DNA of 11,439 nt from Candidatus Babeliales bacterium (lineage in GTDB: Bacteria; Babelota; Babeliae; Babelales; Vermiphilaceae): NCBI GenBank assembly GCA_044451405.1, contig JBIOKB010000027.1, positions 1-11,439 of the forward strand, read 5' to 3'. Positions 1-11,439 of this stretch are shown one piece after another. Position numbers and translations under genes: made by a program. Each line of letters opens with the position of its first letter. Position 1 is the first letter of the stretch. The notes below the pieces were generated by a model. The model was not told the DNA's origin and searched no databases. It saw only the letters and a list, made by a program, of their open reading frames with translations.

Positions 1-1430
1 GCGATAAATGAAACATAGAGCTGATTAAGCTGGATAACATTCTTGCCCCCTACGATATGCTGCGTACCCCCGTTGAGTTCAATGTAGTTAGGGAATCTAT
101 AGCTGAGTCGCCAGCTAATGCGATGTGAGTTCACTTCCGTCAATTTTGCAAGCGATGCCGTATCAAAAGTAGCATCACTACACACCTTGAAACAATCTTT
201 TGCTTTGTGGGTATAATCGTAAAAAATGCCCAGCACAAAATCCTTTTTAAAAATGTTGTAAAAGTAGTTACCAATACCAGCGAGCACGCGCGGCGCGCGT
301 TTAATACGTGTGCGCACTGCGGCATCGGCAAATGCAGGAATAGTAGAATCGTATTCGCTGAACGTAGTTACTACATCACCAAATACTGGTGGCACCGATT
401 GTATAAGACCACCTAAAGGATTTCCTTTCCCTATTACATTATGTACGCCATCAACCGGACCATTAAATTGTTTAAGTTGTGCAATACGACGCATGCCATA
501 AAATGTAGGGCTTATATCCACTGAAACTTGGAGTGCTGGATTAATCCCTGCCCAGGGAGAATGCAAAAGAGCGTTTGAGAAAAAGCCAACTGAGGATCCA
601 CCACCTTGACTTAAATCAATGGGCCACAAATTGCTGGCTATATCAGCAGTTGTTGTTGGCACCATCCAGGTAACACCCACTTGCAATGCATCAACATAAT
701 TGAAATACTTGGCACCATCTATATATCCAAAAAATGTTATATCACCTAACCCCGTTTTTCTTTGTAATGAGTGATACGTTAATCCTTTTGGCTCTAAGAT
801 AGAGGCAACAAAAAAATCGTAGACATCTTCATAAAAGCTAAAAAACTGGGCCAGTGTTGATTGGCTCACCGGCAAATTGGTACCCATCGGACTTAACAAA
901 CTGCCGCTATCAAAATCTATATGTAAAATATTAAATTGCGTTTTAATAGGAACGTTTAATCCTATAACAACATCCATACGTTCTGTTTCACCCAAGCTAC
1001 GGCGATATGAAGCAGTAAATAACGCTACGAGTTCTCGTGTTTCAGCATCAAATTCAAGCTCAACCGGAGCTAAGAGTGTAGTTAAGACATCGGTAGTTAA
1101 CGGATCACCTGGTATAGTGATTTTATTTTCAGCCGATAACTTGGCAAGTAAAAAAATATCACCAAAAGAGAAACGATCACTGCCAAAAATGGTTTTTGCT
1201 AACGGAGCAATACCTCCATTGCATCCATAGCCTTGATCACCAATAGTTAAACTGATGGTGGCAGGAAAAGCCCAAGGACGCTGCATTGCCTGGTCAAGAC
1301 GATCTTGATAATAGTCTCTTCCCAACAGTGTTGTTGAATCATCTGAACTAACAGACAGGCCCGCACGTGCTAACGTAACACTAAAAAGTGCAAGAACAAC
1401 TGATTTTATTGTTGTTTTATAGATACTCAT
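1..1430 (-). CDS. Exported protein, probable outer-membrane beta-barrel; 3' end runs off the window (>=476 aa)
   Basis: Not in the ORF track because it has no stop inside the window. Manual translation from ATG at 1430 (MSIYKTTIKSVVLALFSVTLARA|GLSV..., signal-peptide-like) is open down to base 3. It contains KTGLGDITFFGY...VGVTWMVPT and amphipathic aromatic strands DFVLGIFYDYTHK, RISWRLSYRF and QLYVSFI. Confidence 0.85.
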   Translation of the reverse strand, partial: MSIYKTTIKSVVLALFSVTLARAGLSVSSDDSTTLLGRDYYQDRLDQAMQRPWAFPATISLTIGDQGYGCNGGIAPLAKTIFGSDRFSFGDIFLLAKLSAENKITIPGDPLTTDVLTTLLAPVELEFDAETRELVALFTASYRRSLGETERMDVVIGLNVPIKTQFNILHIDFDSGSLLSPMGTNLPVSQSTLAQFFSFYEDVYDFFVASILEPKGLTYHSLQRKTGLGDITFFGYIDGAKYFNYVDALQVGVTWMVPTTTADIASNLWPIDLSQGGGSSVGFFSNALLHSPWAGINPALQVSVDISPTFYGMRRIAQLKQFNGPVDGVHNVIGKGNPLGGLIQSVPPVFGDVVTTFSEYDSTIPAFADAAVRTRIKRAPRVLAGIGNYFYNIFKKDFVLGIFYDYTHKAKDCFKVCSDATFDTASLAKLTEVNSHRISWRLSYRFPNYIELNGGTQHIVGGKNVIQLNQLYVSFI

Positions 1431-1470
1431 TATTTTCACTCAAGCAAAGATCTTATTCATATCGATACCT

Positions 1471-1500
1471 AAGCTATAAATGAGCATGATGTGCTGTCAA
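1471..1500 (-). promoter_or_regulatory. Putative sigma70 promoter for the 1..1430 gene
   Basis: Minus strand TTGACA (1495-1500), 18 nt spacer, TAGCTT (1471-1476). Confidence 0.35.
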
Positions 1501-1536
1501 TAAAAATGCGCCCGTCATGGCGCACCATGACGGACA
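1499..1536 (-). terminator. Rho-independent terminator downstream of the 1560..2048 gene
   Basis: Minus strand UGU-CCGUCAUGG-UGCG-CCAUGACGG-GCG then CAUUUUUAUU. Perfect 9-bp stem (1512-1520/1525-1533), extended by G-U pairs only on the minus strand. Confidence 0.7.
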
Positions 1537-1559
1537 AGCCCACAGGAAAACAAGGATTT

Positions 1560-2048
1560 CTATGTAGTATGTGACTGTAATCGATACGCAAGTGATGCAC
1601 GATGCTGCATTGTTTGAAATTCATGATAATACTGTTCAAGTGTAGTAAGTATACAGTTAAAATATGCAGCACGTTCATGATAATTTAAATAGGTATTATC
1701 AGCGGTAAGAAGTGGATTATAGGTAGCAAAATCCATAATCAGATTATAGAGATATACCACTGATGGCACACTCTCTGCTAAACGTTGTTCGCGCTCATGC
1801 ACGGCATCTTCAACACGCGTACCTGTTACATCAGTTTGAAGATATTCAACAAGTGTTAATTCTGCTTCGAGCACACACAACAATTGTTCTAAAGAATTTT
1901 CAGTAGAGGCATCGCTTTTTTTAACAAAGCGCACTGCTTCATCGAGATTGTGCTTTAACACACGCTCATCTACCGCAGAAGAATTCCCGATTGCCATAGC
2001 ACTTATAAGCACAACACCTATAACCACAGAACATTGATATCTGTTCAT
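1560..2048 (-). CDS. Hypothetical exported helical protein (162 aa)
   Basis: Part of ORF 1560..2129. The likely start is MNRYQ at 2048, after RBS AGAGGGGG. Hydrophobic N-terminus VVIGVVLISAMAIG. No recognisable family. Confidence 0.75.
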   Translation of the reverse strand: MNRYQCSVVIGVVLISAMAIGNSSAVDERVLKHNLDEAVRFVKKSDASTENSLEQLLCVLEAELTLVEYLQTDVTGTRVEDAVHEREQRLAESVPSVVYLYNLIMDFATYNPLLTADNTYLNYHERAAYFNCILTTLEQYYHEFQTMQHRASLAYRLQSHTT

Positions 2049-2067
2049 TTCCATTTCCCCCTCTTGT

Positions 2068-2111
2068 CCTACGTAGCCTGCCGAGCTGATTGCCCGGATA
2101 GGCGAAGTAGG
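2068..2111 (-). repeat. Structured TTCGCC...GGCTAC hairpin element (non-tRNA copy) just upstream of an RBS
   Basis: Minus strand CCTAC-TTCGCC-TAT-CCGGGC-AATCA-GCTCGG-CA-GGCTAC-GTAGG. Same core as the elements after tRNA-Arg and tRNA-Leu, with different but complementary outer arms. Confidence 0.6.
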
Positions 2112-2294
2112 ATGATACCATAGTATCAATTTTAATTTTCAAATCGGAATGATTTTTAAGAAAAGATTATTTTATACGTAACTACAGTACAAAAACATGC
2201 ACAATTTTTATTATGATCCTAACCCTTTTATCAACACCACTATCTTTGTATACTAAATAAAATAAAAACTCATGATTTTTTAGCCAGGAACTGT

Positions 2295-3194
2295 ATGATT
2301 CTCATTATTATATTGTATGCGCTGTGGGCTGCATCAATCTCATCAAGCAAAATTCTTCTTACCTATTCATCTCCCCTCTTTTTAACGGGGATTCGTATGC
2401 TTATTGCAGGGTTGTTATTGCTTGGCTACCAATATTTTTATGCACATCATCATTTTCGTTTTCACAAAGAACATACCTATTTGTATGGGCAAGTCATTGT
2501 CTTTGGCATCCTTATTTCTTATTTTCTGCGTTTTTGGGCGCTTGAATATATCACCGCTACTAAATTACTCTTTTTGTATAACCTTGCGCCGTTTATGTCC
2601 GCTCTACACTCCTACTTCTTCCTTAATGAACGCATGAGCACACGTAAATGGATTGGCATGTTGATCGGCTTTATTGGTCTATTACCTATCTTGCTTAATT
2701 CATCAGAGCAAGAAAAATCAGTCGGCGAATTATATTTTATTTCCTGGCCAGAACTGGCAGTTATCCTATCAGTTGCTACCAATAGCTACAGTTGGATTGT
2801 TATGCGCAAACTCGTGCGCGATGAACACTATTCACCCATGATGATTAACGGTATTTGTATGACGCTTGGTGGCCTACTTGCCCTTTTCATTGCCATTCCT
2901 CTTGAATGGCCGTGCCCTGTTACGAATGTATGGGCTTTTATTGGTTGGCTTGCGTTTATTATCATTATCAGCAACATCGTAAGTCACAACTTATATGGAT
3001 ATTTACTCCGTGATTACACCGCCACCTTTTTATCATTTGCCGGTTTTATGAGCCCGTTGTTTGCAGGGCTGTATGGCTGGCTATTTTTTCATGAAACAAT
3101 TACCTGGCACTTTTATGCATCAAGTATTATTGTATTTATCGGGTTATTTCTCTTCTATCAAGATGAAATACAAGAGCAGGAAACGCTTATTTAA
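2295..3194 (+). CDS. EamA/DMT family transporter
   Basis: 299 aa with about 10 hydrophobic segments in two repeats. Motifs PLFLTGIRMLIAGLLL, LAPFMSALHSYFFLNER...KWIGMLIGFIG and PLFAGLYGWLFFHETITW. Confidence 0.9.
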   Translation: MILIIILYALWAASISSSKILLTYSSPLFLTGIRMLIAGLLLLGYQYFYAHHHFRFHKEHTYLYGQVIVFGILISYFLRFWALEYITATKLLFLYNLAPFMSALHSYFFLNERMSTRKWIGMLIGFIGLLPILLNSSEQEKSVGELYFISWPELAVILSVATNSYSWIVMRKLVRDEHYSPMMINGICMTLGGLLALFIAIPLEWPCPVTNVWAFIGWLAFIIIISNIVSHNLYGYLLRDYTATFLSFAGFMSPLFAGLYGWLFFHETITWHFYASSIIVFIGLFLFYQDEIQEQETLI

Positions 3195-3854
3195 TTACAA
3201 AATTACACATCCGCAGCATCCTTTTTTATTCGCCTGCGCATGTGCAGCAATGTCAGCTGCTAATTCTTTATCCAACTGATCATCTAGAATGGGCTCAACA
3301 CGTTTATTTTCCACTCGAGAGTCAATGTATATTCCTAGTTGGACAATAACATTTCTTATGAGTTGATTTCCCACCTCTTCACGTTGATGTGTATCCAAAC
3401 CTGGCAGACACGCTACTACCCTGGCCATAGATTTTCGTAAATTAGGCTCTTGCGCAAGAATCTTTTGATGAACACTGTCTTCAAGACTCTTTTGACGAGC
3501 ACTATTTTTAGGAGAATTCTGACGACTTGATAGTGGAGATCCTAATATAGCATATGATCGTTCTGTCCCTTCTTCTGTATCGGTATCACGCTCATCAGCA
3601 GAACTCCGTCTACTGCCAGAACTTTTACTCCCATTACTTTTTGAACGAGGAAACAATAGTGAACTGGTACCAGAATCAGAGTGTGGTAACATATCACGAG
3701 ATTGTATATGCACAGGCTGCAAACTAACTGCTCCTACTTCTGCAACAAGCGAGGAAAGTGATCGTTCCGACCCTGGACCCTTCTTATCAGCCGCATAACC
3801 AACCAAAGAACTGCATACTAACAGTACGTATCCCAACCGCATACCTTCATTCAT
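3195..3854 (-). CDS. Secreted Ser-rich protein with C-terminal CaaX box (KKGCCGCVIL); candidate host-prenylated effector
   Basis: 219 aa. RBS AGGGGGGAG. Signal-like MRLGYVLLVCSSLVGYA|AD. Ends TGT GTA ATT TTG TAA. Confidence 0.85.
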   Translation of the reverse strand: MNEGMRLGYVLLVCSSLVGYAADKKGPGSERSLSSLVAEVGAVSLQPVHIQSRDMLPHSDSGTSSLLFPRSKSNGSKSSGSRRSSADERDTDTEEGTERSYAILGSPLSSRQNSPKNSARQKSLEDSVHQKILAQEPNLRKSMARVVACLPGLDTHQREEVGNQLIRNVIVQLGIYIDSRVENKRVEPILDDQLDKELAADIAAHAQANKKGCCGCVIL

Positions 3855-3866
3855 ATTCTCCCCCCT

Positions 3867-4490
3867 TTACAATATTACACAACACCTACGTTGACTCTGT
3901 TTTTGACGCAACTTTAGAATCTCTGCAGCTAATGTTTGCTCTGGAATCATAGGATTTATCACCTGTAACACTTTCAACAGATGTACTGCAGTAATATTAT
4001 CTCTGAATGCTATTTTATCAGCTGGTAATCTTGCAAAAATTTTTGTCAGCGCAGGTTCAAGTATTTTTATATCAGAAGCAAGTTCTTTCTCGTTTATAGA
4101 ACATTGGGACTGTTGAACTGTACCACGAGTATCATCTGCTAACGCTATTAAATATTCTCTCTGTTTATTCTTAAATAGCCCACTACCAGAATCAACCCCA
4201 TGATCACGTCGCTGCTCATCGGTAAGTGGTTCAGCAAAACTCGATTCAGCAGTAGGAGTACTAAAGGTATCTTCTAAATCTCCTTCAGTTGGTTTCATTT
4301 TGGCAACTTTCTCAAGCAACGCAGTCTGCAAATCATCATGGGACACAGATGAAGCTAATCCCTGTTCACTACTACGTGAAATAGATCGGTTCGGCAATCG
4401 CGCTGATCCTCCTTTTGGCTTTTCTTCAGCGGCAGATAGCATTGATACTATAAAAATGTGCATCATTACAGCGTATACCACCCTAGACAT
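3867..4490 (-). CDS. Secreted protein with C-terminal CaaX box (RQKQSQRRCCVIL); candidate host-prenylated effector
   Basis: 207 aa. RBS GGAGGG. Signal-like MSRVVYAVMMHIFIVSMLSA|AE. Ends TGT GTA ATA TTG TAA. Lies 12 nt upstream of the next gene. Confidence 0.85.
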   Translation of the reverse strand: MSRVVYAVMMHIFIVSMLSAAEEKPKGGSARLPNRSISRSSEQGLASSVSHDDLQTALLEKVAKMKPTEGDLEDTFSTPTAESSFAEPLTDEQRRDHGVDSGSGLFKNKQREYLIALADDTRGTVQQSQCSINEKELASDIKILEPALTKIFARLPADKIAFRDNITAVHLLKVLQVINPMIPEQTLAAEILKLRQKQSQRRCCVIL

Positions 4491-4505
4491 ATACCCTCCA
4501 TTTCA

Positions 4506-5651
4506 TTATAGAATTACACAACATGGTGAACAACTCGAACAACAACCAGCACAGCATCCTACTTTAAACGATTTTTCTATCTCATCAGCAAAGTGTTGAT
4601 CTTGTTGAACAGAAAGTATTGTTGGCATTGGCAACGTACTACTTTTGGTTCGGTGATGAGCATGATACAAAGAAGCAAGTGCTTGGCGTGTCTTTTCTTT
4701 CGCAGTTCTATTTAACTTTACCGAATCTTTTATCGTATCACGTAACGCAGATCGTAATCTTTCTTCTGTTTTTGGTACTTCGAATTTAAGTTTTCTATAA
4801 TAAGCGAGCGTGTTAGGCGACAGATCTCCTTGCAACCATTCATCGCGTGCAACATCACCGCCTGAAGCAATCGACCCTCCTCTACTACCAGCACCAAGCG
4901 CTGCAAAATCTACATGCTGCTCATCAGTAATTTCTTCACCATCAATAGTTTGCAAATTGCCACTTGCAAGTAATCTGTCGCCTGGTTTAGCTTTTTGTTC
5001 TTCTTTAACAATTTTACGAAAATGCTTGCGCGTCTCGGGAGTATTTTTACCTGCAATATTGCACCTATTTTCAACAAGCAGTTTTATTACAGGATCATCT
5101 TCTTGTGATCCTGCAGAACTTCGTCTACTTTTTGGGCTAGTGAGAACAGCAGCTACACTGTGTCTCGGACTCGGTCTTGGACTACGCATAGTACTCAAAG
5201 CAGCACTTGCGTTTATTGGGTTCTTAAGTGTCGCACCAGCACCACTTCTTTGACTCGGACTTGGTCTTGCATACGTAGTAACAGGCAGCGCATCTCCTGT
5301 CGCACTATCCTTAAAAGTAAAAGATCTAGTAATACGAGCACCATAGGGCACTTCTCCAGTGCCTGGCTCAACGGTAACACGCAAGTCTCTCCTACTGCTA
5401 GCTTCAACTTCTTTATCAGATTCTTCTTCTAATATAGGTTGTGCTGGAGGCATTCTTTGCATACGCATAGCTCCCTCAAATGGCGGGCCTTCCGATGAAA
5501 CTGAACGAGCCAACAATGGTTCTTGTGCATCAGGATTTTCTGCAAATGTTACTTCTTTATGTGGACTCGTTTTTTTGGATTTTTCTGATGCGCATATAAA
5601 ACCGGATGCAAGAAAAAGAACGAGTATAGTGTAATAGTTGATGGTTTTCAT
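4506..5651 (-). CDS. Secreted Ser/Arg/Pro-rich protein with Cys-string plus CaaX box (GCCAGCCSSCSPCCVIL); candidate host-lipidated effector
   Basis: Part of ORF 4506..5699. The likely start is MKTINYYTILVLFLASGFICA|SE at 5651 after GAGTGGGG (381 aa). Ends TGT GTA ATT CTA TAA. Lies 15 nt upstream of the next gene. Confidence 0.85.
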   Translation of the reverse strand: MKTINYYTILVLFLASGFICASEKSKKTSPHKEVTFAENPDAQEPLLARSVSSEGPPFEGAMRMQRMPPAQPILEEESDKEVEASSRRDLRVTVEPGTGEVPYGARITRSFTFKDSATGDALPVTTYARPSPSQRSGAGATLKNPINASAALSTMRSPRPSPRHSVAAVLTSPKSRRSSAGSQEDDPVIKLLVENRCNIAGKNTPETRKHFRKIVKEEQKAKPGDRLLASGNLQTIDGEEITDEQHVDFAALGAGSRGGSIASGGDVARDEWLQGDLSPNTLAYYRKLKFEVPKTEERLRSALRDTIKDSVKLNRTAKEKTRQALASLYHAHHRTKSSTLPMPTILSVQQDQHFADEIEKSFKVGCCAGCCSSCSPCCVIL

Positions 5652-5781
5652 ATATCCCCACTCATATAATAATGAGCACCCATGTGGTGCATATCTCAAC
5701 TATACAAACAACGAAGCTCATTTTTCCATTGTTTAGAAAAATGAGCTCACCAAACATTGGTAAAATACGATTAAAATTAAG

Positions 5782-5970
5782 TTATTTAAGATTAATTAAG
5801 CAGGCTTCTTTATTAACTTCATCAACAAATGATGTTTCAACATCCTGGGATTCTTCTGGAAAAACCATAGAAAAACACTGCAAACAGGAGCCTTCTCCTT
5901 GTTGGTGCCTCCACAGCATAAAAAATGTAAGAAAAACCAATCCTACCAGTACCCAAACTACTTTCTTCAT
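5782..5970 (-). CDS. Small membrane-anchored hypothetical protein (62 aa)
   Basis: MKKVVWVLVGLVFLTFFMLWRH N-terminal TM/signal after RBS-like AAGGGGG. Contains a CLQC motif and an acidic tail. Confidence 0.6.
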   Translation of the reverse strand: MKKVVWVLVGLVFLTFFMLWRHQQGEGSCLQCFSMVFPEESQDVETSFVDEVNKEACLINLK

Positions 5971-5986
5971 CCATTTCCCCCTTTTA

Positions 5987-6015
5987 ATCATAGCATACCA
6001 CATATCAATTGACAA
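5987..6015 (-). promoter_or_regulatory. Putative sigma70 promoter for the leftward genes
   Basis: Minus strand TTGTCA (6010-6015), 17 nt spacer ending TGC (extended -10), TATGAT (5987-5992). Confidence 0.4.
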
Positions 6016-6095
6016 ATAGAATAATTCAAGTAGGCGTTTTACAAAACACGTATAATCTCACATACTGAATAAAAAGCTTATTTAAAGGGACTTTT

Positions 6096-6713
6096 ATGAA
6101 GAAACTCGTATATCTATTCCTACTAACCATACCTGCAAGCCCAGTACTTTATGGGCAACAAGCAACTCATTATGGAGCCTACGCTAAGGCCGGAGCTCGC
6201 CATCTTTTTTCTACTGATGGAATCAAAGATATTGCCGCTGTATATGGCATTGTCGTGGGTATGACCCTCATTCATGAACTAGGTCACGCTGTAGTAGCAA
6301 AATTAAAATGCGGTGCACCAATAGATATTGTTATTGGTGGCGAACGAAGTGGAAAAGATTCCCTCTTAAGAAAATATACTGGTATTGAAGTCGCTGGATT
6401 CAATCCATTAAAAGTTGGTACCGACTGGGAAAAATACAAGTCAAAAGATGCAAAAAAAGCAGCTGAGCAAGAAATCATAGTTGGCATAGCCGGCCCACTC
6501 GCACAAGCGATGACCTGTTATTGTATATATAGATGGTTGCAAAATAAGGATAAGTTCTATCTTGCCAAGACAACAGCTATAGGTGGAATAGGTGATACAA
6601 TTCTAGGGGTTAATGGTATTCTTGGTGCACTGTTTCTTCCATGGACCGATTCAGCACGGATCGTGCAAAACATTAAACAATACTTTTCAACTAAATCTCA
6701 TCACACGTCATAA
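6096..6713 (+). CDS. Site-2 protease/peptidase M50-like zinc metalloprotease
   Basis: LIHELGH (HExxH) in a hydrophobic segment, IAGPLAQ motif, and LPWTDSARI corresponding to the NxxPxxxxDG third-ligand motif. N-terminal signal-like sequence. Confidence 0.75.
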   Translation: MKKLVYLFLLTIPASPVLYGQQATHYGAYAKAGARHLFSTDGIKDIAAVYGIVVGMTLIHELGHAVVAKLKCGAPIDIVIGGERSGKDSLLRKYTGIEVAGFNPLKVGTDWEKYKSKDAKKAAEQEIIVGIAGPLAQAMTCYCIYRWLQNKDKFYLAKTTAIGGIGDTILGVNGILGALFLPWTDSARIVQNIKQYFSTKSHHTS

Positions 6714-7201
6714 AACATGCGCAGCAATACAGGTAATCCTGGTTTACTGGCATCTCCTGCCTTCAGGCGATCAACAACCTCCTGAGGAGTTAACCAATAA
6801 TATTCACAAAAATCATCGTGATTATAGTTTGGTGTGTCATTCTGGTAAATGCGGTACACCTTCATAAAGAATTTAACCTCATCTTTATAGGGATTTAAAT
6901 ATCCCATGCATTCATAGGGAACCGAGGTAATATCAAGATTAATTTCTTCCTGGGCTTCTCGAGCAAATGCAGTATCATAATCTTCACCACTTGCAACACA
7001 TCCACTTACACTCATATCCAGCGCTAGAGGGAGCAGTTTTTTAGTGGCAGTGCGGCGTGGAATCCAGAGTTGCCCTTTATCATTTTGAATAAATGCATTA
7101 ACTGCTCGTATCTTACCTGGGGCAGTGACCCATTCTGAACGCCATACCTGGCCTATAACCTGGTCATGCTCATCAACAAGATCTAGTAATTCGTCATCCA
7201 T
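6701..7201 (-). CDS. Nudix hydrolase (IPP-isomerase-like/YfcD-like subfamily)
   Basis: Nudix box GCVASGEDYDTAFAREAQEEINL. N-terminus ELLDLVDEHDQVIG and PRRTATKKLLP are typical. Confidence 0.9.
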   Translation of the reverse strand: MDDELLDLVDEHDQVIGQVWRSEWVTAPGKIRAVNAFIQNDKGQLWIPRRTATKKLLPLALDMSVSGCVASGEDYDTAFAREAQEEINLDITSVPYECMGYLNPYKDEVKFFMKVYRIYQNDTPNYNHDDFCEYYWLTPQEVVDRLKAGDASKPGLPVLLRMFYDV

Positions 7202-7218
7202 GGGAACCTCGGAGATAA

Positions 7219-7560
7219 TTAAAAATCGAGCATCTTTTTGCCCGAGATAAAATGGGCATGCAAATGGAATACACTTTGTCCTGCATCAGGACCATTATTG
7301 ATTAGTAAGCGAAATGCTTGGGACCCTGATAAATGTGAAGCAAGCTGCTTTGCCATCAACATGATATACGATGGAATAAACGCATCGGATTCAGATAATG
7401 ATGTGATATCTTTTATGTGTTTTTTAGGAATAATGAGATAATGAACGGGCGCTTTTGGCGCAATGTCTTGAATAACCAGAATCTGATCTGATTCTGCTAC
7501 TACTTTTGCAGGCACTTCACGTGCGATTATACGACAAAATATACAAGAAGCTTCAGACAT
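7219..7560 (-). CDS. hinT: Histidine triad (HIT) nucleotide-binding protein
   Basis: CIFCRII, DIAPKAPVHYLIIPKKH and AGQSVFHLHAH (HxHxH). Confidence 0.95.
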   Translation of the reverse strand: MSEASCIFCRIIAREVPAKVVAESDQILVIQDIAPKAPVHYLIIPKKHIKDITSLSESDAFIPSYIMLMAKQLASHLSGSQAFRLLINNGPDAGQSVFHLHAHFISGKKMLDF

Positions 7561-7577
7561 AGGTTCCCTCTTAAATG

Positions 7578-7661
7578 TGGCACTGCCCAGTCAGCGAAGA
7601 TTGGCGCTAGCCAGGCGTAGCCTAATCAAACTTCGAAGTTATTCCCTAAGGCGAAGACTGG
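7578..7661 (-). repeat. tRNA-3'-linked structured repeat (full unit plus degenerate second unit)
   Basis: Minus strand CCAGTCTTCGCC-TTAG-GGAATAACTTCGAAGT-TTGAT-TAGGCTACGCCTGGCTAGCGCCA, then ATCTTCGCTGACTGGGCAGTGCCA. Matches 9717-9779. Confidence 0.8.
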
Positions 7662-7735
7662 TGCGCCTAAGAGGAGTCGAACCTCTAACCTTCAGATCCG
7701 TAGTCTGACGCTCTGTCCAGTTGAGCTATAGGCGC
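7659..7735 (-). tRNA. tRNA-Arg(ACG)
   Basis: GCGCCTATAGCTCAACTGGACAGAGCGTCAGACT-ACG-GATCTGAAGGTTAGAGGTTCGACTCCTCTTAGGCGCACCA. 77 nt with encoded CCA. Confidence 0.97.
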
Positions 7736-7789
7736 TTATTTCAAGGTAAAAGGATTTAAAAAGTGTACTGTACACGGTGCGATTTGTCG

Positions 7790-7810
7790 ATTCCCTAGGG
7801 CGAAGACTGG
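7790..7810 (-). repeat. Truncated copy of the tRNA-3'-linked repeat
   Basis: CCAGTCTTCGCCCTAGGGAAT, 20/21 identical to the start of the tRNA-Arg copy. Confidence 0.75.
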
Positions 7811-7899
7811 CGGAGAGAGAGGGATTCGAACCCTCGCGCCCGGTTTACCCAGACTCTTGCTTAGCAGGCAAGCGCTTTAGACCACTCAGCCATCTCTCC
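7808..7899 (-). tRNA. tRNA-Ser(GCT)
   Basis: GGAGAGATGGCTGAGTGGTCTAAAGCG-CTTGCCT-GCT-AAGCAAG, long variable arm, GGTTCGAATCC, ends CTCTCCGCCA. Ser(GCT)-Arg(ACG) order as in the conserved serV-argV arrangement. Confidence 0.97.
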
Positions 7900-8072
7900 A
7901 AACTCGCACAATGTCAAATATTCCAAAAAGGATAAGCAATCTATCATTTTATGCAAGAATATTCTTGTTCCCAAAGGGGTTACCAAGTCCCCAATGTAAG
8001 ATGCTGTATGGGAGATACTAAATACGCTATAGTAAGAAGCTGTACTTGATGCTTAACAAAGGAGGATAAGCT

Positions 8073-8369
8073 ATGTCATTTGCCTTTGAAGTAAAAGTGG
8101 TTCCTAACGCAAAAAAACATAAATGGATGTTGGATAAAGCAGGGCGCTTAGTTTGTTATATAAAGAGTAAAGCAGAAAAAGGTGCTGCAAATAGAGAGTT
8201 ACTTAAAGAAACTGCTGAAATTCTTGGTGTTCCTCAAAGTAAAGTTACCCTTGTTTTAGGCTTTGAAAGCCGCAAGAAGCTTATAAAAATTAGTGATGCA
8301 CAATTGACGTATGAACAATTACTCTCATTGCTGGGCTTAGAACAACAAACATCCCTTGTTAAAAAATGA
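8073..8369 (+). CDS. yggU: DUF167/UPF0235 (YggU) family protein
   Basis: VKVVPNAKK, AEKGAANRELLK and LVLGFESRKK. RBS AGGAGG. Confidence 0.85.
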   Translation: MSFAFEVKVVPNAKKHKWMLDKAGRLVCYIKSKAEKGAANRELLKETAEILGVPQSKVTLVLGFESRKKLIKISDAQLTYEQLLSLLGLEQQTSLVKK

Positions 8370-8384
8370 GATCAGGAAACCATC

Positions 8385-9584
8385 ATGCCCTATTTTAAAT
8401 GGTACGGCGTTGATATCACTGGTACGTATCGCTCCGGATATTGTTTTGCTCCTTCCCAAGAACTTTTAGATTGCTTGCTGATTAAACAGGAAGTTGCCTT
8501 ATTAAAAGCACAACCAGTTTCTATGCCTCGGTTGGGACATGGTATTACAAAGACGTGCATGGTACAGCTATTGTCTCAACTTGCAGTGCTCGTACATTCA
8601 GGTGTTTTTCTTGCCGATGCACTTATTATTGTAGCTGAACAATCATCTAATCCGTATATGCAAGAAATGGTATACGCATTGGCTGAACACATACATAAAG
8701 GCATCTCATTCAGTGATGCTTGCAAATATTATCCACATTACTTTACACCACTTATGATTCACACCATCCAGATTGGCCAAGAAACGGGCGCATTAGCATC
8801 TGCACTAGAACAGGTGTGTGAACACATACTGATGATGGAAAATTTTAATAAAGAACTTAAATCAGCAGCGCTTATGCCCGCTATAACATTTCTCTTTTTT
8901 GTGTGTATAGCAGCAACGATTGTTTTTGGCATTATGCCCCGCTTTATACAAATGCTTTCACTCAAACATACAGATATACCACCAATTACCCGTTTTTTAA
9001 TGCATATTAGTTCCAGTATTTGCATATACCATGTACTCGGCGCTGTGCTGGTAATTGCACTCGGGATACTATGTACTACATGGTATTACCGTTCTACAAA
9101 GGGCAAGTATGTTATTGATAAAAGCATAACGCATATTCCATGTATTGGCCCTCTTACAACTACCATGTGGAGTATTTATTATCTGCGTTCATTAGCATTG
9201 CTTATCAAAACTGGCATGCCGTTGGTTCCTGCTATGCGCATAGCAGCACATACCATTGATAATGCGTATTGGCATCTATCAGCACTACACATGAGTAAAG
9301 AAGTTGAAGCAGGAAAATTGTTAAGTCAGGCTATGGTACAGGAGCAGCGATTGTTTGGCCGCGATATTCAAGCGTTAGTCGCAGTAGGAGAACAATCAAC
9401 ACGGTTAAGTGATCTTCTTACCCATGCTGCAGATAATGCACAAAAGCATGTTAAGCGCCAACTTGCATTCTATGTACAAGTATTTCAACCACTGCTACTT
9501 TTGATCATTGGATTATGTATAGCAGGGCTTATTGCTGCTACGTATATTCCTATTCTTACTATGAGTAGTTCGCTTGGATTCTAA
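8385..9584 (+). CDS. pilC: Type II secretion system F / type IV pilus inner-membrane platform protein
   Basis: 399 aa with two T2SSF repeats: QLAVLVHSGVFLADAL...IQIGQETGAL and LALLIKTGMPLVPA...VAVGEQSTRL. Three TM segments and a PilC-like N-terminus MPYFKWYGVD. Confidence 0.88.
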   Translation: MPYFKWYGVDITGTYRSGYCFAPSQELLDCLLIKQEVALLKAQPVSMPRLGHGITKTCMVQLLSQLAVLVHSGVFLADALIIVAEQSSNPYMQEMVYALAEHIHKGISFSDACKYYPHYFTPLMIHTIQIGQETGALASALEQVCEHILMMENFNKELKSAALMPAITFLFFVCIAATIVFGIMPRFIQMLSLKHTDIPPITRFLMHISSSICIYHVLGAVLVIALGILCTTWYYRSTKGKYVIDKSITHIPCIGPLTTTMWSIYYLRSLALLIKTGMPLVPAMRIAAHTIDNAYWHLSALHMSKEVEAGKLLSQAMVQEQRLFGRDIQALVAVGEQSTRLSDLLTHAADNAQKHVKRQLAFYVQVFQPLLLLIIGLCIAGLIAATYIPILTMSSSLGF

Positions 9585-9589
9585 CTGGA

Positions 9590-9618
9590 TTGACGCTCAG
9601 TGCTCTTTTGGGTACCTT
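9590..9618 (+). promoter_or_regulatory. Putative sigma70 promoter of tRNA-Leu
   Basis: TTGACG (9590-9595), 17 nt spacer, TACCTT (9613-9618), 15 nt upstream of the tRNA. Confidence 0.5.
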
Positions 9619-9633
9619 ATACCTCTATATAAT

Positions 9634-9719
9634 GCCGGGATGGCGAAATGGCAGACGCACGGGACTCAAAATCCCGCGGTAGCAATACTGTGTCGGTTCA
9701 AGTCCGACTCCCGGCACCA
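9634..9719 (+). tRNA. tRNA-Leu(CAA)
   Basis: GCCGGGATGGCGAAATGGCAGACGCA-CGGGACT-CAA-AATCCCG, variable arm, GGTTCAAGTCC, ends TCCCGGCACCA. Confidence 0.97.
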
Positions 9720-9779
9720 GTCTACGCCGTACGCTGGAATAACTTCGAAGTGCCACCTAGGCTACGCCTGGCTTCGCCA
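9717..9779 (+). repeat. tRNA-3'-linked structured repeat (full unit)
   Basis: CCAGTCTACGCC-GTACGCT-GGAATAACTTCGAAGT-GCCACC-TAGGCTACGCCTGGCTTCGCCA. Shares the blocks GGAATAACTTCGAAGT and TAGGCTACGCCTGGCT exactly with the tRNA-Arg copy. Confidence 0.8.
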
Positions 9780-9790
9780 TCTTTTTGCCT

Positions 9791-10213
9791 TTACCAACTC
9801 CCACCATGTACTTCAGGCTCTGGCGTATCCATTTGTTTTATATAGGCAGCTATATAATTGTACTGTTTAATTTCCCATGCATCATCGATCACAACTCCTG
9901 TTGTATTAGGTTTTATTTCAACAGGAAGCGTTGCATAACCTCCTCTTTCTAATCCAACAAATGTGATAACAAACGTATAGCTACCTGGTCCATTGAGTAT
10001 TACTATGTTTTTTACTTGGTTTGGTTCAAGTATGTAATCTGCTTGACCTTTGATAACATATGGCGTAATTACACCCGTATATTCAAGTGTTGCTGTCTGC
10101 ACCTGAAGCCTAATTTTTTTACTCCCATTTTTAACCGAAACTGTTTTTGGCGTCGCATCAAGTACCATCACTATACCCATAAGACTAACTACCATCACGT
10201 ACCGCATCTTCAT
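9791..10213 (-). CDS. Hypothetical exported protein (140 aa, probably beta-rich)
   Basis: RBS AAGGAGGGG. Signal-like MKMRYVMVVSLMGIVMVLDA|TP. No recognisable family. Confidence 0.75.
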   Translation of the reverse strand: MKMRYVMVVSLMGIVMVLDATPKTVSVKNGSKKIRLQVQTATLEYTGVITPYVIKGQADYILEPNQVKNIVILNGPGSYTFVITFVGLERGGYATLPVEIKPNTTGVVIDDAWEIKQYNYIAAYIKQMDTPEPEVHGGSW

Positions 10214-10368
10214 ATTCCCCTCCTTAATACATAATTTTCTTTTACTTCAGCCTAACAACACTCCTCACGCATACGCTACAATCATTCCATAATTCTTACC
10301 TCTTTCTTGCGTTGCCCTATAACACTAATTACACTTAGGTAAAGTTTGATTATTGCTTAGGAATCTTC

Positions 10369-11004
10369 ATGGTTGAATATGGAATTATAGGATCAAAAGG
10401 TTTATTCGTCGGTTTTGTTCTTGCCATGATGTTGGGGCCCATTGGCATCTTTTGTATTCAACAAACACTCCGTAAAGGATTTAAGGCAGGATTTGCTGCG
10501 GGTCTTGGTGCAGCAGTAGCTGATGGCATCTATGGAATGATCGGAGGTTTTGGCCTTACCTACATTTCAGATTTTCTTCTTAATTATCATCTTATATTGC
10601 ATATTATTGGCGGCACATTTTTAGCATTCCTTGGATTTAACACCTTCATGCGCAAAGAATCTCCGGTTAATATTACTGTTGAACGGCCAAATCTTCTGGG
10701 ATTATTTAGCACCACCTTTTTTTTGACCCTTGCTAACCCCATAACCATTTTGGCATTCACTGCATTACTTGCCAGCATTGATATTGAAGTTGATGGATGC
10801 TGCATACCAATGGCAATAATATTATTTACCAGTATCTTTATTGGTTCTACTTTATGGTGGTTTTTCCTCGCAAGTATTATTAGCACCTTCCGTACAAAAC
10901 TATCACTCAACTTTATCCGACAACTTAACATGCTTGCCGGAATTGTAATTCATGTGTTTGGGTTACTCATTGTAGCTAAAGCGCTCTATAAATTGCTGGT
11001 GTAA
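10369..11004 (+). CDS. LysE/RhtB family translocator
   Basis: [49 protein letters not shown] and FIGSTLWW. Confidence 0.93.
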
Positions 11005-11030
11005 ATTCCTTTTTTTCTTCTAAAAAGTAG

Positions 11031-11058
11031 TTGATTTGCTTGCACTTTTGAGTACAAT
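11031..11058 (+). promoter_or_regulatory. Putative sigma70 promoter of tRNA-Ser(TGA)
   Basis: TTGATT (11031-11036), 16 nt spacer, TACAAT (11053-11058). Confidence 0.4.
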
Positions 11059-11075
11059 TTAATCTTATTATTCTC

Positions 11076-11163
11076 GGAGAGGTGGCAGAGTGGCCGAATG
11101 CGGCGGTCTTGAAAACCGTTATCCTGAAAGGGATCGTGGGTTCGAATCCCACCCTCTCCTCCA
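11076..11163 (+). tRNA. tRNA-Ser(TGA)
   Basis: GGAGAGGTGGCAGAGTGGCCGAATGCG-GCGGTCT-TGA-AAACCGT, variable arm, GGTTCGAATCC, ends CCTCTCC-T-CCA. Confidence 0.97.
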
Positions 11164-11197
11164 GTCATTTCCTTCAGAAATGACTGGCAGGCCAGTC
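11161..11197 (+). repeat. Variant tRNA-3'-linked hairpin
   Basis: Perfect 11-bp stem CCAGTCATTTC-CTTCA-GAAATGACTGG that includes the tRNA CCA, followed by CAGG-CCAGTC. Confidence 0.65.
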
Positions 11198-11310
11198 TTT
11201 CTAATCGATTCTATTAACCACAGTTTCATTTCAAATTCCCCTTTTCTTCACACTATTTTTCACGTATCCTAATGCAACTCAACGTATCATGTGTGCATTA
11301 TGGGAGATAG

Positions 11311-11439
11311 ATGGAAATTCCAACTATTACTACACCACGACTTACACTACGCGCCTTGAACATGGAAGATGCACCAGCAGTTTTTGCATACGCATCTGAT
11401 CCTGATGTCACGCTATTTACGCACTGGTCAACACATACA
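11311..11439 (+). CDS. RimJ/RimL-type GNAT N-acetyltransferase, N-terminal part (runs off the window)
   Basis: RBS GGGAGA, then MEIPTITTPRLTLRALNMEDAPAVFAYASDPDVTLFTHWSTHT, matching the classic T-x-RL-x-LR...EDA...SDP-V start. Confidence 0.85.
   Translation, partial: MEIPTITTPRLTLRALNMEDAPAVFAYASDPDVTLFTHWSTHT

Follow-up and report, generated by a model that had tools for sequence, protein, structure and literature searches.

Conserved cysteine-rich CaaX tails on a cluster of signal-peptide proteins from a Babelales bacterium point to probable anchoring by host prenylation

What could a CaaX box do at the end of a bacterial protein that also carries an export signal? The question is raised by three adjacent genes, the open reading frames (ORFs) ORF3, ORF2 and ORF1, in a stretch of 11,439 nucleotides from a Candidatus Babeliales bacterium (assembly GCA_044451405.1, contig JBIOKB010000027.1, positions 1 to 11,439; the whole stretch is referred to as the window). 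The window corresponds to contig C27 in a genome of 1.02 Mb that is 95.7% complete, and the described members of the phylum, Babelota, are intracellular parasites of protists (PMC12172432). Each gene encodes an orphan protein with a signal-peptide-like N-terminus and a C-terminal CVIL preceded by cysteines. Host prenylation of bacterial effectors is already known; the Cys-rich CaaX tails on the Sec-signal proteins described here are a real, conserved feature. From the sequence, we think it reasonably probable that the three proteins are effectors secreted through the Sec and type II pathways, which would be geranylgeranylated and S-acylated by the host and anchored at the cytosolic face of a host membrane.

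The three tails and the CaaX boxes of the genome

The tails read KKGCCGCVIL in ORF1, KLRQKQSQRRCCVIL in ORF2 and KVGCCAGCCSSCSPCCVIL in ORF3, the last with 7 Cys among its final 16 residues. The ORF ends were re-read, and the tail sequences reported for these co-oriented genes in an initial annotation proved exact in all three cases. A Leu in the X position directs geranylgeranylation, and the prenyl group often needs a second signal, either palmitate or a basic patch (PMC9141697).

The genome has 905 ORFs of at least 100 amino acids, of which 272 were classed as signal-peptide-like by a crude rule of our own and 633 as others. The pattern C[VI][VIL]X ends six of the 272 signal-peptide-like ORFs and none of the 633 others (0.11 expected; binomial p 2e-9), and in the signal-peptide set it is found 0 times at each of 20 offsets other than -4. 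Three of the six are the tandem genes, so that there are four independent loci in all. A plain Cys at -4 is not enriched (18/905 in total; 9/272 signal-like vs 9/633 others, Fisher p 0.07). Upstream of the box, at -16 to -5, 9 of the 36 residues of the three tails are Cys, compared with 3 among the 681 residues of the protein bodies. The CaaX box of the three tails is not a product of chance.

The other CaaX proteins of the genome carry signal peptides and are unlinked to the cluster. They end in SPSCCIIQ (G000:C24:5716-6681, minus strand), MRTCVIL (G000:C34:5408-6325, plus strand, with a weak ankyrin match) and EDSCIIM (G000:C6:12084-12686, plus strand); two of them have farnesyl-type X residues. 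The signal peptides and this wider CaaX set, neither of which the initial annotation mentions, are the more informative features.

ORF3, ORF2 and ORF1 all lie on the minus strand, 15 bases apart (ORF3-ORF2) and 12 bases apart (ORF2-ORF1), and because the gaps are short the three genes likely form one operon. The start of ORF1 at 3854 is backed by a ribosome-binding site and by the orthologue. All three N-termini combine a basic residue with a hydrophobic stretch and with an Ala where cleavage would be plausible. The parts of the cluster are as follows.

4506..5651, minus strand: ORF3, a 381-residue orphan with a signal-peptide-like N-terminus and a Cys-string CVIL tail
5589..5651, minus strand: predicted Sec signal peptide of ORF3, 21 residues, by our own rule; putative cleavage
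4506..4559, minus strand: ORF3 tail GCCAGCCSSCSPCCVIL and stop, 7 Cys
4494..4499, minus strand: Shine-Dalgarno-like GGAGGG in the ORF3-ORF2 gap, read from the sequence
3867..4490, minus strand: ORF2, a 207-residue orphan with a signal-peptide-like N-terminus and an RRCCVIL tail
4431..4490, minus strand: predicted Sec signal peptide of ORF2, 20 residues, almost invariant between ORF2 and its orthologue; putative cleavage
3867..3914, minus strand: ORF2 tail KLRQKQSQRRCCVIL and stop; RR lost in the orthologue
3858..3865, minus strand: Shine-Dalgarno-like GGGGGGAG in the ORF2-ORF1 gap, read from the sequence
3195..3854, minus strand: ORF1, a 219-residue orphan with a signal-peptide-like N-terminus and a CCGCVIL tail
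3792..3854, minus strand: predicted Sec signal peptide of ORF1, 21 residues; putative cleavage
3195..3227, minus strand: ORF1 tail KKGCCGCVIL and stop; CCxCVIL retained in the orthologue

Several Cys-rich ends of other kinds were seen elsewhere in the genome. A 164-residue signal-peptide orphan (G000:C20:15700-16194, plus strand, locus L090) with no Pfam match has an acidic 7-Cys string end, GCCDDCCGCCCIPL; this tail may be acylation-only, since Pro at a2 makes it a poor CaaX. Non-canonical Cys tails were also found on a signal-peptide alpha/beta hydrolase-like protein (DACCAQI; G000:C14:22149-23237, plus strand), on an orphan (WNCLFA; G000:C11:16586-17554, minus strand) and on a small protein (FPCCRRKR; G000:C5:10956-11351, minus strand). 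A further signal-peptide protein with ankyrin-like repeats (G000:C6:21627-23066, plus strand) has a C-terminal Cys/His pattern which, by eye, we take to resemble the eukaryotic MYND zinc finger.

Conservation of the tails

Full-length homologues were found for each of the three proteins: three for ORF3 (59, 45 and 41% identity), one for ORF1 (65%) and one for ORF2 (48%). Two ORF3 fragments (P0011 and P0013) were excluded from the tail counts, as was a profile match judged spurious (P0012, sushi repeats). The signal-like N-terminus, CVIL and at least 2 upstream Cys are retained throughout the 5 full-length homologues (41-65% identity). Counting the cluster proteins as well, all 8 tails share CVIL with at least 1 Cys just upstream, and each has 1 to 6 Cys in the 12 or so residues that precede the presumed prenyl Cys.

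The initial annotation had read the tails as three different Ras-like second signals (a Cys pair, a polybasic patch with CCaaX, and a 7-Cys string), each of them a separate targeting code that might direct its protein to a different host membrane. The tails do differ in Cys number (3 in ORF1, 2 in ORF2 and 7 in ORF3) and in net charge (+1, +4 and +1). The CCxC spacing is retained in the ORF1 orthologue, in which KKGCCGC is replaced by KTACCDC (one Lys lost, an Asp gained), and the 7-Cys string recurs almost letter for letter in the distant ORF3 homologue P0005, which is only 12% identical at residues -60 to -20. The polybasic type, however, is not kept: the ORF2 orthologue ends in SQCCCVIL where ORF2 ends in SQRRCCVIL, RR being swapped for an extra Cys; the net charge at -19 to -5 is +4 in ORF2 and +1 in the orthologue; and the polybasic patch adjoining the CaaX box, of the K-Ras4B type, is thus not conserved between the two. 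Furthermore, the Cys strings of four ORF3 orthologues hold 3, 5, 7 and 7 Cys, a span that overlaps the ORF1 type. The known effectors speak on both sides. Palmitoylated GobX and LpdA are described as being sent to different compartments (PMC5780409), and the seven Legionella Pels are reported at distinct membranes when expressed ectopically, but all of them are placed on the vacuole face in infection (PMC13081727). With tail types not kept among orthologues, and with these seven effectors converging on one membrane, separate host-membrane addresses for the three tails appear unlikely. What stands of the earlier proposal is that the tails look like CaaX boxes with palmitoylatable Cys upstream and that this arrangement is conserved; the division into three distinct signal types is not supported. 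The upstream cysteines would fit better as one shared second signal of variable length than as three address codes.

A CCaaX end is found in yeast Ras2. The resemblance to Rap2B, drawn in the initial annotation for the ORF1 tail, is correct: the end of Rap2b is given as ...DEGCCSACVIL (10.1101/2021.12.06.471477). The ORF3 homologue with the 3-Cys form, P0010, has an end (GCCSSCVIL) identical to it in 8 of 9 residues. This likeness covers only about 9 low-complexity residues and is best taken as convergence. The hypervariable regions of Rap2b, H-Ras/N-Ras and K-Ras4B join a CaaX box to upstream Cys or basic residues, as the tails do; unlike these proteins, ORF1-3 have no GTPase domain (no Pfam match) and the polybasic type is not conserved.

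The three nearest homologues come from the same source, each on a contig of size 10,967, and for this reason the cluster is probably conserved there. Searches for ORF3 in 60 relatives and in 79 genomes of the family besides the present one found no match, and the latter result makes it look lineage-specific. A metagenome scan for ORF3 returned one N-terminal fragment, at a contig end.

The protein bodies

A Pfam scan of ORF1, ORF2 and ORF3 gave nothing above cut-off; a weak gp25 match on ORF1 (E 0.006, below cut-off) was rejected. No Pfam match to the P-loop G domain of Ras-superfamily GTPases was obtained in the three proteins or the five homologues. The AlphaFold model of ORF3 is mostly of low confidence (mean predicted local distance difference test score 43.9) and too poor for a fold search; it shows predicted helices at about 187-220 and 279-366 and a long low-confidence region rich in Ser, Arg and Pro. 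The bodies nevertheless contain the conserved blocks GKNT, RGGSIA and GDVA.

Proteins with mostly low-confidence or disordered bodies, no recognised domain and a tail as their most conserved part could be decoys, abundant substrates that occupy host geranylgeranyltransferase I (GGTase-I), DHHC enzymes or prenyl chaperones, with mislocalisation of host Rho/Rap GTPases as the result. CVIL is indeed the motif in the GGTase-I co-crystal structure (PMC9141697). The conserved blocks, however, would be superfluous in a decoy, and in relatives the CaaX box is carried by ankyrin proteins (see below), for which an anchor role is the simpler reading. We consider a decoy function very improbable and keep to membrane anchoring.

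Two other classifications were considered. The proteins do not fit bacterial lipoproteins: the lipobox Cys is not conserved, Cys20 of ORF3 being Tyr in 3 of 4 homologues; ORF2 lacks a Cys after the signal peptide; and the ORF1 Cys lies inside the hydrophobic core. Nor could the three be shown to be paralogues, BLASTP giving nothing significant and profile comparison giving probabilities of 46%, 5% and 3%. No paralogue of any of them was found elsewhere in the genome. Over their final 25 residues, ORF1 and ORF2 give a weak alignment (hhalign probability 46%, E 2e-4), and the codons TGT GTA AT are common to the ends of all three genes; common descent of the three tails is possible on this sequence evidence.

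The word RRSS occurs in the Ser-rich disordered region of both ORF1 and ORF3 (window 3560-3640 and 5100-5190, minus strand), and SPR words are repeated in ORF3 and its homologues. These words could possibly be host kinase sites.

CaaX boxes in relatives

For a wider view, 100 loci selected for ankyrin matches in five genomes of the same family (G023, G017, G027, G010 and G014) were examined, with a yield of 374 distinct ORF ends. The genomes were not chosen blindly: G023, G017 and G027 were taken because their pattern counts showed an excess. The pre-set pattern C[VI][VIL]X was found at -4 in 7 cases; no other offset gave more than one, in either class. A broader CaaX pattern, picked after seeing the list, ends 12 of the 374 ORFs vs 0.32 expected: 7 in G023, 4 in G017 and 1 in G027, with none in G010 or G014. 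Among these 12 proteins, two pairs look like tandem paralogues. Four more signal-peptide ankyrin proteins, at locus L044 (G023:C2:104000-123999; 4825-6459 and 13587-16394, minus strand), end in CMIQ, CVIS, CVIS and CITS, and three of the four lie in tandem. Thus, CaaX-bearing secreted proteins turn up repeatedly, although patchily, in the family, and the Cys second signal is seen only in the lineage of the present genome.

Basic CaaX tails, with a net charge of up to +6, were noted at L163 (G023), L120, L173 and L186; overall they do not rise above background. K-Ras-like tails do exist in the family. A 443-residue signal-peptide orphan of G017 (L074:1501-2832, minus strand) ends in DKKQRCVIT, a basic patch with a CaaX-like box.

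DNA-pattern counts, in which CaaX-stop was compared with the stop shifted by one codon, were made in 61 genomes. The present genome gives 22 vs 12, but such counts are uninformative because they are swamped by chance. At 30 pattern-count loci, 0 matches end a long gene (28 have no ATG frame and 2 have frames of 34 and 47 amino acids). In 20 regions around such matches, 0 CCaaX gene ends were found at the picked match, and among 30 CVI-X-stop loci an open frame of at least 100 amino acids was found in 2 and a plausible gene in 1. One short frame in G054 (L023:1414-1518, plus strand) ends in SNVSCCIIA and may be the terminal part of a longer gene that uses a different start codon.

Secretion and lipidation machinery

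Signal-peptide proteins account for up to 44% of genes in Babelota (PMC6561590). In Babela, type II is the only secretion system reported as detected, and 79 signal-peptide ankyrin proteins are described (PMC4378268). The present genome has parts of a type II system, namely two secretins, a GspE-type ATPase and GspF (no search aimed at type III/IV genes was made).

A search of the 95.7% complete genome for the prenyltransferase alpha subunit family PPTA found nothing. The DHHC family was likewise not found, in a search whose control matched in no prokaryote, and DHHC enzymes are described as eukaryotic (PMC5780409). Since neither PPTA nor DHHC was found in the genome, any lipidation of the tails would be the host's.

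Proposed mechanism

The proposed chain has five steps. The proteins would first be exported by Sec with cleavage of the signal, as their sequences and the conserved signals of the homologues suggest. They would then pass the outer membrane, likely by type II secretion, for which the genes are present and their use is presumed. The third step, access to the host cytosol, would be required since prenyltransferases are cytosolic enzymes. There, following the CaaX rule for X = Leu, host GGTase-I would geranylgeranylate the Cys at -4. Finally, -aaX would be cleaved and the end methylated, after which host DHHC enzymes would presumably S-acylate the upstream Cys. The proteins would thereby be stably anchored, most probably to the membrane that surrounds the replicating bacterium or to the plasma membrane, and would display the long disordered Ser/Arg-rich region and the short helices to host partners.

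Several observations weigh against this proposal: i) two of the six CaaX proteins of the genome lack an upstream Cys; ii) in the relatives, 0 of the 12 CaaX tails have one and the net charge of these tails equals background (0.25 vs 0.23, p 0.84), so that the family does not generally need a second signal; iii) the counts in 61 genomes show no order-wide CaaX excess (330 vs 291 shifted; 1250 vs 1208); iv) the S-acylation site of Salmonella SifA is reported to be dispensable for survival (PMC4951486); v) the Cys strings might be oxidised in the periplasm, as VKOR is encoded in the genome; and vi) Babela is described as growing in a vacuole (PMC4378268), so that substrates of Sec and type II secretion could stay in the lumen, away from prenyltransferases. 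Access to the host cytosol is the weakest link of the chain for this last reason, although Chromulinavorax appears to be cytoplasmic and to shed what look like vesicles (PMC6561590).

The oxidation argument can be taken further. The tails could be prenylated by the host while the upstream Cys form disulfides or bind metal, for instance protecting the CaaX Cys in the periplasm or serving oligomerisation, without acylation. Besides the presence of VKOR, this is favoured by the passage that the proteins would make through the periplasm; the CC, CxxC and CxC spacings of the 7-Cys string can bind Zn or Cu. However, the number and spacing of the Cys vary among orthologues and are ill-suited to a metal site or fixed disulfides, the cytosol of the host is a reducing environment, a search of the genome for DsbB found nothing, and a location beside the prenyl site is the typical context of S-acylation. 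Such a role seems to us quite improbable.

The vacuole argument leads to a more radical alternative, in which the proteins stay in the periplasm or the vacuole lumen and never meet host prenyltransferases, the tail serving a bacterial purpose or being a duplication relic. We know of no route across a vacuole membrane, and the weak ORF1/ORF2 tail alignment with the common codons means that the three tails may be one event. Yet unrelated proteins (from three other loci here, and ankyrin proteins of three other genera) have the CaaX box precisely at -4, X varies among L, M, Q and S, and no bacterial sorting signal of CaaX form is known to us. We give this alternative very little credence, and return to host-prenylated, acylated effectors as the preferred reading.

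Comparison with known systems

One of the closest parallels is with the CaaX effectors of Legionella pneumophila (Pels/CMPs and AnkB), which are host-prenylated at a C-terminal CaaX and anchored on the cytosolic face of the vacuole (PMC13081727, PMC4951486). ORF1-3 share with them a conserved CaaX at exactly -4, beyond chance; the Legionella effectors likewise act in protist hosts, and some have ankyrin repeats (PMC13081727, PMC4951486). No sequence similarity of ORF1-3 to the Legionella CaaX effectors was found. These are Dot/Icm type IV substrates, whereas ORF1-3 have predicted Sec-type signals in a phylum with only type II detected. Salmonella SifA, which is geranylgeranylated by GGTase-I and S-acylated, is the direct precedent for CaaX with a second signal (PMC4951486). 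It differs in being a single type III substrate, whereas here a three-gene cluster carries up to 7 Cys, with no shared domain detected. By analogy, ORF1-3 would work like this host-prenylated class, and the delivery route would differ. In their Sec signals and orphan character they resemble the secretomes of Babela massiliensis and Chromulinavorax destructans, whose ankyrin and ORFan proteins are presumed to act in the host (PMC4378268, PMC6561590).

In the literature covered, which included few subscription journals, no report of host-prenylated effectors was found for this phylum or for Sec-signal proteins; "prenyl" has 0 occurrences in the main text of either the Babela or the Chromulinavorax paper (PMC4378268, PMC6561590). 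That Babelota signal-peptide proteins reach the host cytosol has so far been an assumption. A CaaX box is usable only by cytosolic eukaryotic enzymes and is in that sense a built-in reporter of delivery. If the proposal is true, the Cys-string tails would show that prenyl-plus-acyl anchoring, which among bacteria is known from SifA, is also used in an unrelated phylum and with a different secretion route. More tentatively, and with slightly more doubt than confidence, we suggest that Babelota deliver signal-peptide proteins to the protist cytosol via Sec and type II secretion with host prenylation as a recurring anchor, to which this lineage would have added tunable palmitoylation strings of up to seven Cys, in a Rap2-like mimicry. 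On that reading, the CaaX boxes would provide the first evidence at the sequence level for arrival of the large Babelota orphan secretome in the host cytosol without a type III/IV injection system.

Other features of the window

Next to the cluster is an EamA gene, whose two closest relatives are Dependentiae/Babeliales records at 58-60% identity. Directly upstream of ORF3 lies a 15-pair hairpin (window 5714-5748), possibly the terminator of the preceding gene. A promoter scan did no better than chance (7 found, 8.2 expected). A GspF/PilC-type type II secretion membrane protein is encoded 2.7 kb from the cluster (window 8385-9584, plus strand). Three further orphan ORFs, all on the minus strand (window 3-1430, 1560-2129 and 9791-10213), have signal-peptide-like stretches and no Pfam match. 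The window also holds four tRNA genes: 7659-7735 (Arg-ACG), 7808-7899 (Ser-GCT), 9634-9719 (Leu-CAA) and 11076-11163 (Ser-TGA).

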